Source: an uncultured Clostridia bacterium
Lineage (GTDB): Bacteria; Bacillota; Clostridia; TANB77; CAG-508
DNA length: 64,000 nucleotides
NCBI GenBank assembly: GCA_944392545.1
Contig: CALXWW010000002.1
Span: forward strand, 59,293 to 123,292
Direction: 5' to 3'
Part shown: positions 19,537 to 32,249 of the stretch, in pieces
Layout of the letters: the number at the start of each line of letters is the position of its first letter
How positions within the stretch are numbered: the stretch's first letter is position 1
The notes under the pieces: generated by a model
Databases searched by the model: none
What the model saw: only the letters and a program-made list of their open reading frames with translations
What the model was told of the DNA's origin: nothing
Translations under genes and position numbers: made by a program

Positions 19537-20328
19537 CTACATATCTTTTAATACATTAAACCAATTCATATACACATACGCCGATATGCTAAAAAACGTC
19601 TTTTTTTCCACAGTTTTTTCTGCAACTATATTGGTTCTTCCCAACTCCTCTCCATTTAAAGTATAAATAATTTCTCCTACTTTCTGTCCTTCATATACTG
19701 GTGCTGTTATATTTTCCTCTAAATTAATTGTTTGAGTAATATCTTTATCTTCTCCTTTTTTCAGTAAAATTCCTACGTCATTCTCGATAATTAAATTTAC
19801 ACTTGAAGTAACTCCTTTTGTAACTTCTGCTTCTTTTAGTGAGTTTCCTTTTACTGCTAAACTTTTATACTCATAGTTATTAAATCCATAGTCTAATAAC
19901 TTTTGAGCTTCTGAAAAACGAATTTTAGTTGTTGGTGCTTTCATTATAACTGCAATAAGTGACATACCATCTCTTGTTGCACTTGCTGATAGATTGTATA
20001 AAGCAACTGAAGTTGACCCTGTTTTTAATCCTGTAGCGCCTTTATAGTTTCTTATTAATTTATTTGTGTTTACTAATTCAGATTTTCCATCTCTTAAGGT
20101 GTCCATCCAGATTGTTGTATAATTTAATATAGTTGGATGGTTATTTAGAAGTTCTCTTGACATTAATGCGATATCATAAGCTGAGGTTAAATGTCCATCT
20201 TCATCTATACCATGGCAATTTTTAAAAGTAGTATCATTCATACCAAGTTCTTTTGCTCTTTGATTCATTTTTGTTACAAAAGCTTCTTCGCTTCCACATA
20301 AATATTCTGCCATAGCAACTGTACAGTC
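19537..20328 (-). CDS. dacF: DacF D-Ala-D-Ala carboxypeptidase, 3' half (interrupted gene)
   Basis: DCTVAMAEYLCGSEEAFV..., IWMDTLRDG, GLKTG motif, PBP5-type C-terminal domain; lacks SxxK, which is in the other half. Confidence 0.92.
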   Translation of the reverse strand, partial: DCTVAMAEYLCGSEEAFVTKMNQRAKELGMNDTTFKNCHGIDEDGHLTSAYDIALMSRELLNNHPTILNYTTIWMDTLRDGKSELVNTNKLIRNYKGATGLKTGSTSVALYNLSASATRDGMSLIAVIMKAPTTKIRFSEAQKLLDYGFNNYEYKSLAVKGNSLKEAEVTKGVTSSVNLIIENDVGILLKKGEDKDITQTINLEENITAPVYEGQKVGEIIYTLNGEELGRTNIVAEKTVEKKTFFSISAYVYMNWFNVLKDM

Positions 20329-20350
20329 TTAGCCAGTACAATTCAGACAC
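20319..20350. other. Attachment site (element/3' dacF junction)
   Basis: Core CTGTACAGTC (20319-20328) plus arm CAGTACAATTCAGACAC (20334-20350). Confidence 0.88.
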
Positions 20351-20406
20351 TAATTTTTTTATTTTTTTCGACTATTTTAATAGTCGATTACTTATTTAAA
20401 TTATGT

Positions 20407-21958
20407 TTACTCTAATTTAGAAAATTTAAATTGTATATCTATATCGGTTTTGTAAATTTCTATTTTATCTATCAGTTCTCTAATACTTATATTATTAAAA
20501 TCTTTCTGCTCAATCTTCTCCAATTTATTTAATATTTCGTTTCTATGACTTAAAGAATCTAATTTATTTCTTTCCTCACCGAAGTTTTTCTTCAATATTA
20601 TTAATTTCACATTGTAACTTTTTTCGATAATTAGATAATTCTTGATATTGTTCATTATAATTTTTTTCATCAATTTCTTCTGATAATCTCTTATTATATA
20701 AATTTGATATTTTAAAACTTATAGATGAAATTTCTCTTTCTAATTGTTTTTTGTTACTTTCTATATTCTTAATTCTATCTATAATAATATCCTTATATAA
20801 CTTGTCCTTAGCTTCTGAAGAATTCAAATACATTTTATACATTTCTTCTAAATAAAAAAATGTTTTGTTTTCTAAATTAGAATATTTTATTTTACAATTA
20901 TTAGAACATAACTTATTATTTTCTGCATTTTGTCTGCAATATACTTCTACATCATTTCTTCGTTTCTTAAAAACAAGTTTTTTCCCACATTCTCCGCAAT
21001 AAATTAAATCTTTAAGAAGATATACATTATCTTTTGTGTTTCCAATTAATCCATATTTCCTATTATTATGTACATTAGCAAAAGTTTCTTCATCTATTAT
21101 AGCTTCATGTGAGTCCTTAATACAAATATAGTCACTTCTTTTTACATAAATTCTATTATTAGATTTATAACTTATTTTTTGTGTCTTTCCTCTTAAACAA
21201 TAGCCTAGATAAACTTTGTTACATAAAATTCTTTTTACAGAACTTGCTTTCCATATATCTTTATTTTCTATGTTTTCAAGACCTCTTATTTTCATATACT
21301 CTGCAGGTGTTATGTAATTATTTTCCTCTAGATAATCTACTATTTGATTTATTGTATATCCATTTTCTTTTAACTCAAATATTTTTTTTACTGTTTTGGA
21401 ACTTACTTCATCTATTATAAGCTTTCCTTGATTTTCAGGATCCTTTTTATATCCAAATGGTGGTGTTGTACAAGCATAAAATCCATCTTTCATTTTTCTT
21501 CTTTTGCTTTTTTTTACTGCCATTGATGTATCCTTGCAATGTTTTTCATTTATCACAGATTTAATTGGCATAAAGTCATTGCTTATACTATCTACGAAAT
21601 TATCTACATCATCTAAAATAGCAATATATCTAACATTATAGTCTGGGAAAAATTTTTCTATGTAATAACCTGTGTCTATATAATCTCTTCCAAGTCTAGC
21701 AAGATTTTTAGTTATAATCATATTTATTTTTTTATTCTCAACATCTGAAATCATTCTTCTAAAATTGGGTCTATTAAAATTAGCTCCACTATATCCATCA
21801 TCTATATATTCATCATACAAATTCATATTATAATGTTTATCAATATATTCTCTAATTATTTTTCTTTGATTTGTAATACTTTCACTTTCCCCATCTCCAT
21901 CTTCTTTACTTAACCTTAAATACATTCCTACATTATAAATTAACTGCTTGTTTGACAT
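20407..21958 (-). CDS. Large serine recombinase 2 (apparent +1 frameshift at CGG 20579-20581; 516 aa if C skipped)
   Basis: YLRLSKEDG catalytic Ser, DDGYSG, LARLGRD, PPFGY, CxxC Zn ribbon; C-terminal IRELIDKIEIY..IDIQFKF lies in the +1 frame. Confidence 0.9.
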
Positions 21959-30987: not shown

Positions 30988-31449
30988 TTATTCGTTTCTA
31001 TATATTTCTCCTATTGTATAAAAATCATATAGATCCTCTTTAGTCATATTTTCGGTATCACGACTAATATAATAATTAGCTTTATTACGAGCATTATTTA
31101 ACATTTTTATAAAATTCTTATGCATATCATCTCCTAATATTTTATCAAAAAATTCACCTAATAAATATGTATTTATAGCACTTGTTCTTAAATATTTTGC
31201 AGTTAATTTTCTTTGTGATTTTATAAATGGTGTTAATTTTGCATCTACAATGCTATCTAATTGTTTAACTATAAAGTCTAAATTATCATTATACATTTGA
31301 ATATTTAATTCCTTTTCTATTCCACTTCTAATAATATCTGATTCAAATCTCCCTTGCTTACTAGCTAATTTTTTTAACATTTCTTTCTTTTCTTTTGGTA
31401 ATCTTACTATAATTGGTACTAATTTTTCTTTATCATTATCTTTTTTCAT
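30988..31449 (-). CDS. Hypothetical protein with N-terminal ribbon-helix-helix-like DNA-binding domain
   Basis: IIVRLPKEKKEMLKKLASKQGRFESDIIRSGI matches an RHH pattern; mobilisation-accessory role is a guess. Confidence 0.6.
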   Translation of the reverse strand: MKKDNDKEKLVPIIVRLPKEKKEMLKKLASKQGRFESDIIRSGIEKELNIQMYNDNLDFIVKQLDSIVDAKLTPFIKSQRKLTAKYLRTSAINTYLLGEFFDKILGDDMHKNFIKMLNNARNKANYYISRDTENMTKEDLYDFYTIGEIYRNE

Positions 31450-31703
31450 ATACTCACTCCTTTTCTAAATCTACAATTAAAAATTTGCCTCAAAACAATT
31501 TTGCAGGATCAGGGAGATATCTCATCTCCCCAAAACAGCTAAAAAGCGTGGCTTTTTACTAGATACACATTATTTTCCTATATATCAGTTAGATATCTAA
31601 GAAAATACATTAAAAGAACTACTATATAAGCAGTTCTTTGTTAGGTGTTTATAATTTTATATTTTTATATTTTTAAAATCCTACTGTCTGTAGTATTTCA
31701 TAG

Positions 31704-31727
31704 GTGTCGGAATTGTTCTGTACAGTC
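31704..31727. other. Attachment site (5' dacF/element junction)
   Basis: Arm GTGTCGGAATTGTTCTG (31704-31720) overlapping core CTGTACAGTC (31718-31727). Confidence 0.88.
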
Positions 31728-32249
31728 ATTAGCAGATACTACACATATTGCTTTTAGCATTTCGTCTACTGTTAATTCTTCGCCTACTTCTAGCCATATT
31801 TGAGAACCTCCCATACTAGCTGCATTTTCTGAACATGGTACTCTATCTTCTAAAGTTATCTGTCCAGAATCTACCGCTTCCATTATTAATAATATGCTCA
31901 TAACTTTTGTTACACTTGCTGGTCTTAATTTTTCATGCATATTGTGGTCATATAGTACCCTACCTGTTGTTTGTTCTATTAATACCGCACCACCTGATTC
32001 TAGATTAAGACTATTATTTTCCACATTGCTATTTTCATTTGCACTTGTTTCTTTGCTTTCCGCTGTTTCATTATTTGTAACCTGCTCATTATTTACTGCG
32101 TTTCCACTTGTCTGAACAGAAATTGGTTCAGATTCTGACGACCAAACATATGCTGTTTCATCTGACGCAAAAACTACAGAAAACATAAATATTGTTAAAA
32201 GAATTAAACAAACACTAATTCTTTTTATATTTTTTTTATTTAGCCACAT
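31718..32249 (-). CDS. dacF: DacF D-Ala-D-Ala carboxypeptidase, 5' half (interrupted gene)
   Basis: Signal peptide, PASVTK (SxxK), MGGSQIWLE, VVSANDCT (SxN), then element-derived EQFRHL-stop (31698). Confidence 0.92.

Follow-up and report, generated by a model that had tools for sequence, protein, structure and literature searches.

The stretch of DNA analyzed here (the window; 64,000 nt of contig CALXWW010000002.1, from an uncultured Clostridia bacterium) carries on its minus strand a Peptidase_S11 DD-carboxypeptidase gene, here called dac, that is interrupted at 20327/31727 by an element of 11,399 bp. This element, a non-phage integrative island, moves horizontally by means of a conserved pair of large serine recombinases (LSR1 and LSR2), and it is close to certain that an LSR island has integrated here at a TC dinucleotide. 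It is an LSR gene-intervening element, a kind that is already known, with a new target. The family to which it belongs, of which no copy had been recognised before, is widespread and currently mobile in gut Clostridia and is dedicated to this dac gene. The coordinates of the gene, the attachment sites and the element genes are collected in Table 1.

The split gene and the crossover point

The insertion site lies in the codons of the SxN motif (S-A-N-D-C-T) of the carboxypeptidase. In the integrated state the 5' open reading frame (ORF; 31698..32249, minus strand, 183 aa) ends with VVSANDCT and six element-encoded codons, EQFRHL*, and the 3' ORF (19537..20313, minus strand, 258 aa) starts with MAEY, the residues DCTVA being encoded immediately upstream of its start. 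Deletion of the element in silico yielded a 1314-nt ORF of 437 aa, reading ...SANDCTVAMAEYLCGSEEAF..., which matched Peptidase_S11 (E = 9e-71) and PBP5_C and contained all three motifs, SxxK, SxN and KTG. An earlier note on this DNA had described the split gene, its coordinates and the rejoined ORF, and it was correct in every detail, removal of the 11,399 bp giving exactly the 437-aa frame. Its statement that the element supplies no replacement gene end was equally sound, the 5' ORF gaining the EQFRHL* tail only. We found no evident ribosome-binding site or promoter upstream of the dac 3' part within the element. Because the 5' fragment stops after six foreign codons at a terminator-like hairpin, the 3' fragment is without expression signals and KTG is separated from SxxK and SxN, the integrated state can be read from the sequence as one in which the dac gene would be off.

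The sequence CTGTACAGTC occurs twice in the 64-kb window, at 20319 and 31718 only, and was regarded by the earlier note as the core of the recombination sites. The repeat is present as described, but the functional core is the TC dinucleotide only. The 10 bp consist of this TC and 8 bp shared by the P arm of the element and the B arm of this particular host, and the repeat is partly a coincidence of the attP and attB arms, because the differing attB sites of other hosts share only GA/TC with the element. The arms of the predicted attP (31704-31720 and 20334-20350) are complementary at 15 of 17 positions and centre on TC (31726-27 = 20327-28). Symmetry around this TC extended to 17 of 25 positions against a background mean of 7.2, 17 being the maximum among approximately 9,100 sampled window positions, and TC was the best symmetry centre of those scanned. 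The symmetric geometry around TC that the earlier note had proposed was therefore borne out: the site spans about 50 bp, with imperfect inverted-repeat arms and a non-palindromic central dinucleotide, as expected of an LSR attP.

Comparison of the junctions of related copies located the exchange point to the base pair. The attL of all copies reads ...GTGTCTGAATTGTACTGGCTAA-GA- and then continues into host sequence, which differs by host (CTGTACAGTT, TTGTACTGTT, TTGCACTGTA, CTGTACAGTA or CTGTACTGTA), and the attR of all copies reads host-GA-CTGTACAGAACAATT(C/A)CGACAC. With at least five attB variants represented among the hosts, the sequence on the element side stays the same as far as GA, and variation on the host side sets in at GA; in one copy (L111) these two bases are the only ones that element and host share at the junction. 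The exchange is conservative, with a 2-bp overlap, and no longer target duplication is needed to account for it. The exchange point is the GA of the Asp codon (TC on the plus strand of the window) and coincides with the symmetry axis of attP, which is a signature of LSR chemistry. Since the host sequence changes right at GA, the copies arose by independent site-specific integrations and not only by homologous exchange.

The recombinase pair and its mobile family

Both recombinases contain the domains PF00239 (Resolvase), PF07508 (Recombinase) and PF13408 (Zn_ribbon_recom) and an R-x-S-K-E-D motif. They are generic members of the family; their closest solved relatives are the TnpX catalytic domain and SprA of SPbeta, and their NCBIfam matches to CcrB, CcrC, CcrA and XisF fell far below the family cut-offs (for Ccr, about 99 bits against a cut-off of 900). 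The TTG start of LSR2 is preceded by an invariant TATAAT...AGGAGG, and the 35 nt upstream of the gene (GGTGTTTATAATAGTTAGGAGGCTATTTTGAACAT; window 23574-23610, minus strand) are invariant among the copies, with one base different in L086, despite LSR2 itself being only 68% identical. This conservation points to a promoter together with a translation-initiation region. Immediately upstream, p48 is the only conserved small gene beside the recombinases in all members of the family; it retains 44-57% identity in diverged elements with a dN/dS ratio (omega) of about 0.1, and is a candidate recombination directionality factor (RDF) or regulator.

LSR1 is broken by a 1-nt insertion in an A-run (about 20585-20592, minus strand; GAAGAAAAACTTCGGTGA), the motif across copies being GAAGAAAAA[C/A]TTCGGTGA. 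Fusion in the +1 frame restores a protein of 517 aa that is colinear with the intact orthologues of 521-522 aa in L084, L086 and L087. The frameshift is common to the window and seven sister copies (eight in total, from different studies and hosts), and the +1 frame downstream of the break, which encodes the C-terminal 60-odd residues, has an omega of about 0.2. We rejected a sequencing error or gene decay as the explanation, given the same insertion in eight copies, an allele that is spreading and the low omega downstream. LSR1 is not obviously a dead gene, and read-through of the frameshift beside a rare CGG codon and a stop is possible. Some of the ribosomes or transcripts may recover the reading frame, or LSR2 may act without LSR1.

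The backbone conserved across copies is p48-LSR2-LSR1. The exact LSR2 protein with the adjoining 460-aa LSR1 is present on other public contigs; in two of these, L081 and L082, a dac 3' half follows directly downstream of the LSR module; the host flanks differ from those of the window in both, and the cargo differs in L081. When the 3' half was used as the query, split forms, recognised by a length of 257-259 aa, made up 11 of the 120 nearest clusters (90% identity); their contigs contained elements, some complete and some partial, in four or more chromosomal contexts. The cargo of the sister copies comprises a NUDIX protein, a UvrD-like helicase, three unknown proteins (377, 380 and 495 aa) and pairs of HEPN and nucleotidyltransferase (MNT) genes. 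These toxin-antitoxin-like pairs are located between LSR1 and the P' arm (L111:9163-9901, L114:9225-9916, L118 and L120-L123), a position equivalent to about 20360 of the window, whose own copy has no HEPN/MNT genes. Synonymous divergence (dS) of the LSR genes between copies was 0-0.17, compared to 0.2-1.65 for the dac 3' halves of the same hosts; for the window and L082 the LSRs were identical and dac had a dS of 1.0. The divergence of the hosts is thus far older than the element, which has been transferred horizontally on many occasions.

A metagenome scan with LSR2 recovered diverged recombinase pairs at the same codon (LSR2 65-68% and LSR1 54-63% identical). One of them, L087, is in the same orientation as in the window, and L084 and L086 are inverted, abutting a 5' half that ends ...SAND. 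Occupation of the same codon by such diverged pairs indicates that site targeting is an old, conserved property of this LSR-pair family. L086 also contains a complete attP-like site next to LSR1 (L086:6930-7130; both arms, centre GA) and, about 110 nt beyond it, another half-site to which the dac 5' half is joined, an arrangement that suggests tandem or nested elements or a remnant. The dac 3' half of L081 (L081:6705-7490) is a mosaic, its first 463 nt being 96% identical to the window and the remainder highly diverged (dN 0.34 overall); this is either donor dac DNA co-transferred by homologous recombination or a chimeric metagenome assembly. Spread solely by homologous recombination with flanking dac DNA, at which the mosaic hints, was rejected as the general mode because at least five junction variants change at GA.

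We searched one genome per species for relatives of the rejoined protein and found 590. The best of them, in the conspecific uncultured Clostridia metagenome-assembled genome (MAG) L001, is uninterrupted; the contig matches the window at 94-97% nucleotide identity over 18.8 kb, with alignment breakpoints at 20333 and 31718. The survey of related genomes proposed in the earlier note has thus yielded both an intact dac gene, in L001, and other cargo at the same codon, in the sister elements. In two chicken-gut metagenome runs, X1 and X2, apparently the source sample, Logan contigs matched both junctions of the window at 100%. Joints from Logan contigs across the whole element were discarded as 20-24-nt k-mer artefacts. 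In three other metagenomes (X9, X3 and X7) the empty site was present alongside the occupied one, with flanks that match the window in X9 and X3; the empty form had a depth of 27.8x against 8.7x for the occupied form in X9, and 13.9 against 5.2 in X3. The earlier note had predicted both an empty and a circle junction: among assembled metagenome contigs the empty junction (attB) was found in these three metagenomes, as well as in the MAG L001, and the circle junction (attP) was not seen.

The target promoter and the timing of excision

We compared the 120 nt upstream of 69 dac orthologues with the classical sigma consensus sequences. The sigma-E pattern kmATAww-N13-15-CATACAmT, at a threshold of at least 13 of 15 positions, was reached in 36% of the 69 regions, against 5% of dinucleotide shuffles and 8% of the regions upstream of 580 further genes of these loci (Fisher p = 2e-9). 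The sigma-A, sigma-F and sigma-G patterns were not enriched upstream of the 69 orthologues, and sigma-A-like promoters were rarer there than at other genes. The sigma-E-type -10 element ends at a conserved position, a median of 30 nt before the ATG. Sigma-E promoters are defined in both C. difficile and B. subtilis by an ATA at -35 and by a -10 of the CATA type, the latter in common with sigma-K (PMC3789822). A near-perfect sigma-F-type promoter, GTTTA-N14-GGAAAAACTA at 38909-38937 (minus strand), upstream of 38221..38880 and of the ytfI-like/ytfJ (GerW) operon, served as a positive control: 11 or 12 of the 12 consensus positions were matched in 26 of 27 relatives, compared to 3.6% of shuffles. 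The ytfI-ytfJ operon belongs to the sigma-F regulon in B. subtilis. The method is therefore able to see forespore promoters, and the lineage, in which SpoVS and GerW/YtfJ are present, keeps compartment-specific sporulation promoters.

In 36 related loci dac is close to scpA-ytfI-ytfJ, often directly after ytfJ, a position beside scpA that resembles the B. subtilis order scpA-scpB-ypuI-dacB. No spoIIA/sigF operon lies beside dac, the neighbours being lineage-specific secreted or lipoprotein-like genes, and dac is not followed by spmAB; the downstream 414-aa ORF had no Pfam or NCBIfam match. In B. subtilis dacB-spmAB is a sigma-E-controlled cortex operon (PMC517825), and the DD-carboxypeptidases CD1291 and CD2141 of C. 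difficile depend on sigma-G and sigma-F (PMC3789822). In sequence the protein shows no specific likeness to DacB; the structure of B. subtilis DacB (3mfd) scored 141 bits against 150-188 bits for others, including Gram-negative DacC and DacA. We dropped the name dacF, under which the earlier note had placed the gene, in view of the missing sigma-F/G enrichment, the absence of adjacent spoIIAA/AB/sigF, the sigma-E-type promoters of the orthologues and the synteny with scpA-ytfI-ytfJ. The target is better described, with no claim of orthology, as a putative sporulation-type S11 DD-carboxypeptidase with a mother-cell-type promoter, and we regard it as likely that it is a mother-cell-type sporulation gene. 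The earlier note had also raised the paradox that excision in the forespore would lose the element from the spore. With a promoter of mother-cell type this difficulty falls away: excision in the mother cell, if it is there that the gene is required, comes at no cost to the element.

In the mode of working that we propose, integration takes place by a 2-bp (TC/GA) staggered exchange between the symmetric attP of about 50 bp and an attB in the SxN codons, as documented by the junctions. Judging from the protein families, the island would be maintained through its anti-phage cargo, here a DpnII-type restriction-modification (R-M) system and an OLD-family nuclease, and other cargo in the sisters. 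LSR-mediated recombination of attL with attR would rebuild the 437-aa ORF and release an attP circle, a reaction that is exact in silico and is matched by the empty sites in populations, and it would probably require a directionality factor, for which p48 is the candidate. The element may follow the mode of skin, SPbeta, gin and yin, in which it would be retained in the germ line (the forespore) and excised in the terminally differentiated mother cell, where the carboxypeptidase would be needed for cortex maturation. The described intervening elements (skin, SPbeta, vfbin, vrin, gin and yin) are all in mother-cell genes and are excised during sporulation (PMC4191935, PMC5595907, PMC10747680). 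We put the whole chain of LSR island, mother-cell target and excision in sporulation at very nearly an even chance, and that excision is programmed by sporulation at a little below even. A fuller version, in which widespread defence islands of gut Clostridia would shelter in the active-site codons of a gene for a mother-cell cortex DD-carboxypeptidase, with paired-LSR excision specifically in the sporulating mother cell and LSR1 perhaps tuned by its +1 frameshift, is put forward tentatively. It would amount to a programmed DNA rearrangement new to sporulation, in commensals of humans and livestock that are uncultured.

As in intervening elements, a coding sequence is interrupted that precise excision would restore. 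Several observations nevertheless weigh against sporulation-programmed excision or soften steps that lead to it. A scan for promoters of the sigma-E or sigma-K type upstream of p48, LSR2 and LSR1 found nothing above background, such consensus scans being weak evidence, and the conserved sigma-A-like -10 before LSR2 (TATAAT-AGGAGG-TTG) looks constitutive. Contigs of bulk chicken-gut metatranscriptomes cover LSR1, LSR2, p48 and the R-M genes of related copies, DNA carry-over being possible; the reconstituted dac junction was not among the RNA contigs. The assignment to sigma-E is based on consensus matching and comparative footprinting. In X1 and X2 no empty-site branch was found for the window strain, only the occupied form, at the level of contigs. 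Where both forms coexist, as in X9, the empty one is the majority, which fits strain polymorphism better than excision confined to mother cells. No contig of X1, X2, X3 or X9 contained the attP circle junction, and IMG/VR gave 0 matches to it. We found no further S11 paralogue within the 64-kb window; paralogues elsewhere in the genome are possible. The dN/dS of the split halves, tried as a test of decay, was uninformative, element dS being far below host dS and the insertions recent; because the element is young and spreading horizontally, the intact halves tell nothing about selection. Sporulation-specific control of the recombinase or of an RDF was not found in these scans, which would lower membership in the intervening-element class without excluding it. 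In the skin element of sigK, for which SpoIVCA is the recombinase of B. subtilis, the C. difficile recombinase CD1231 is constitutive and a small RDF, CD1234, gives sporulation specificity (PMC5025042); a constitutive recombinase with a regulated RDF would still fit the island.

We also considered that the element might be a plain mobile island in a gene whose knockout is tolerated. The conserved coding motif would then be a landing pad of broad host range, carriers would do without the enzyme or have a paralogue, and excision would be sporadic and serve transfer. This explanation is a serious possibility, well short of probable. It is favoured by the polymorphism of the element within populations, usually with the empty site in the majority, by its very recent and promiscuous horizontal spread and its insertion in both orientations, and by a recombination module with LSR transcripts in bulk gut RNA and no visible sporulation-type promoter. 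Single dacF mutants of B. subtilis have no obvious phenotype, and dacB mutants still sporulate, which also counts in its favour. It does not readily account for a family of LSR pairs that spans 54-100% identity and holds to one target gene, or for a target with a mother-cell-type promoter. Wherever an LSR element that interrupts a mother-cell sporulation gene has been characterised, it excises in sporulation, and the destruction of the active-site motif with no replacement end would carry a cost in spore quality unless reversed.

The other explanations are much less probable than a tolerated knockout. If dac were a true forespore-expressed dacF, the element would be excised in the forespore, curing the spore, or the gene would simply be lost. 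The protein sequence is indeed closer to DacA/DacC/DacF-like S11 enzymes than to B. subtilis DacB, and CD1291 and CD2141 of C. difficile are controlled by sigma-G and sigma-F (PMC3789822). There is also a 12/12 match to the sigma-F consensus, GCTTA-N14-GGAGAGAGTT at 23695-23723 (minus strand), within the coding sequence of p48 and 122 nt upstream of LSR2; as its -35 is not conserved in diverged elements and it lies in conserved coding sequence, the match is probably due to chance. Upstream of the 69 orthologues it is sigma-E and not sigma-F/G that is enriched, although the same method detects the sigma-F promoter at ytfI-ytfJ, and dac is not adjacent to spoIIAA/AB/sigF; we consider forespore expression very unlikely. 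A reversible on/off switch in growing cells, independent of sporulation and like the active lysogeny at comK of Listeria, would be consistent with occupied and empty forms on identical flanks within single samples and with LSR genes that look constitutively transcribable. It is very unlikely in view of a target promoter that looks sporulation-specific, so that vegetative toggling would have no phenotype, and of an attP circle that was not detected and, with no recognised replication genes, would be diluted out. That an assembly artefact joined a mobile element to the dac gene is hardly credible: the window comes from metagenome-like data and the mosaic 3' half of L081 is possibly chimeric, but contigs from two runs cover both junctions with 100% identity, and the same junction architecture recurs independently in over 10 assemblies that stem from different studies and hosts.

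Known relatives, cargo and neighbouring genes

A literature search found no description of a dac gene as the target of an LSR or intervening element, in agreement with the earlier note, which knew of none. Among known systems gin, in the gerE gene of Bacillus cereus ATCC 10987 (Abe et al. 2017, PMC5595907), resembles the island most. It is likewise a non-prophage element with several serine recombinase genes and an R-M system that splits the coding sequence of a mother-cell gene (presumably so here), with cargo that varies around a conserved recombinase module and precise excision that restores the ORF (in silico here). The two differ in target, host and recombinases: gerE, Bacillus and three recombinases for gin; a DD-carboxypeptidase gene, an uncultured low-GC gut Clostridium lineage and two LSRs here, one of them with a conserved frameshift, in a family that is demonstrably spreading between species. 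Sporulation-specific excision, shown for gin, is suggested here by analogy. The skin element is also an LSR-mediated intervening element, in a mother-cell gene, and p48, a small conserved ORF beside the LSRs, is comparable to its RDF; however, skin is a degenerate prophage of largely vertical inheritance with a single recombinase, and its target is a sigma factor, so that excision acts as a developmental checkpoint, whereas the target here is an enzyme.

SPbeta in spsM (SprA/SprB; PMC4191935, PMC5499854) and yin in yabG of C. botulinum (PMC10747680) are active mobile elements with a mother-cell sporulation gene as attB, and share with the island the LSR chemistry, a short core and populations with and without the element. 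They are phages or prophage-like, in contrast to the island, which has no phage genes, and SprA is distant by sequence (E = 1e-17). The staphylococcal SCCmec cassettes (ccrA/ccrB) resemble the island in the LSR gene pair, the variable cargo and the single conserved chromosomal site, and their tandem or composite arrangements recall the complete attP-like site and second half-site of L086. SCC elements, however, integrate at the 3' end of rlmH without destroying the gene and have no developmental link, and the LSRs described here are not Ccr orthologues. Tn4451 (TnpX) and Tn5397 (TndX) are clostridial LSR transposons, and the TnpX catalytic domain was the best solved-structure match. Both also use a GA/TC-type 2-bp crossover. 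They have a single LSR, relaxed target choice and resistance cargo, unlike the strict target specificity of the island.

If excision is programmed by sporulation, a peptidoglycan-maturation enzyme would join sigK, spoVFB, spoVR, gerE, spsM and yabG among the genes rebuilt by DNA rearrangement, and the phenomenon would extend to uncultured Clostridia that are abundant in the gut of chickens, pigs, cattle and humans. Independent of timing, the family offers a clean, naturally multiplexed LSR system, with the same attP, at least five natural attB sites, a known crossover dinucleotide, paired recombinases and a candidate RDF. Defence systems (R-M, OLD, HEPN/MNT and UvrD-helicase cargo) on an element that lands in a sporulation gene would link phage defence, horizontal transfer and spore biology.

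The genes of the element and dac all lie on one strand. The element has no genes for phage structure, packaging or lysis, its PHROG matches being of integrase type plus one weak repressor-like match, and we rejected a prophage on this ground. We also found no recognised replication genes in the element, no family for p48 or p113 in Pfam, PADLOC or PHROGs, and no Rfam match in 19000-33000. The D12 methylase, the N6_N4 methylase and the DpnII endonuclease form a single operon, the arrangement of a DpnII-type R-M system; the gene order M-M-R matches that of the DpnII cassette, and specificity for GATC would be expected from the family. The 615-aa protein is an OLD-family (AriA/GajA-like) nuclease, and its gene is presumed to be an anti-phage gene. 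The tandem repeats upstream of p48 are followed by a GC-rich perfect hairpin at about 23940-23975 (GTGCGTTTTGC-TTC-GCAAATACGCAC). Repeats and hairpin are kept in sister elements and not in the diverged L084 and L086; they could be iterons, an oriT or sites for a regulator.

Table 1. Positions in the window of the dac gene parts, attachment half-sites and features of the element.
Feature	Position	Strand	Remarks
dac 5' part	31728..32249	-	residues 1-174 and GA of the Asp175 codon; signal peptide, SxxK, SxN
dac 3' part	19537..20326	-	residues 176-437; KTG and PBP5_C domain
Putative sigma-E-type promoter of dac	32279..32307	-	TAATATT (32301-32307), 14-nt spacer, AATATAAT (32279-32286), 29 nt upstream of ATG
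attR, element-side half	31704..31727		P arm GTGTCGGAATTGTTCTG (31704-31720), TACAG, crossover TC (31726-31727)
attL, element-side half	20327..20350		crossover TC (20327-20328), TTAGC, P' arm CAGTACAATTCAGACAC (20334-20350)
Terminator-like hairpin	31613..31639	-	at the inner edge of the element, following directly on the truncated 5' ORF
153-aa ribbon-helix-helix (RHH)/Arc-like protein	30988..31449	-	N-terminal RHH region, weak phage-repressor match; backbone gene at the attR end, 97% identical in L111
Histidine phosphatase family protein (His_Phos_1), cargo	29802..30326	-	Pfam domain
D12-class (Dam/DpnM-like) N6-adenine DNA methyltransferase	28432..29391	-	PF02086
N6_N4 (DpnA-like) DNA methyltransferase	27698..28477	-	PF01555
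DpnII-family type II restriction endonuclease	26838..27701	-	PF04556, E = 3.6e-107
615-aa AAA_15/AAA_21 ATPase with Old-like C-terminal region	24989..26836	-	PADLOC matches AriA, Old, GajA
113-aa conserved backbone protein (p113)	24497..24838	-	no family assignment
Three imperfect tandem repeats of about 100 bp	24124..24387		in a non-coding stretch of about 700 nt upstream of the p48-LSR module
p48, 48-aa ORF	23642..23785	-	immediately upstream of LSR2; in every family member
LSR2, 546-aa large serine recombinase	21933..23573	-	Resolvase, Recombinase and Zn_ribbon_recom; TTG start
LSR1, second large serine recombinase	20407..21958	-	460 aa (20576..21958), then 88-codon continuation in the +1 frame (20407..20673)

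Some observations were made elsewhere in the window. The MAG L001 is without about 830 bp at window 36520-37352, which removes the start and the N-terminal 270 or so residues of a 431-aa secreted protein (35961..37256); the protein has a C-terminal TPKTG sorting-like motif, and the difference is a case of strain-level surface-protein variation. A 658-aa ABC-F protein is encoded at 50533..52509 (minus strand). Its best NCBIfam match was the OptrA ribosomal-protection model (E = 1e-211), with 705 bits against a cut-off of 1450, and it ranks as an ABC-F relative, not as a called resistance gene. A protein with a Fic/VbhT-like adenylyltransferase domain (44316..45023, minus strand) lies between a flavorubredoxin-like gene and the cluster ymdB-spoVS-(SBP)-recA-recX-scpA.

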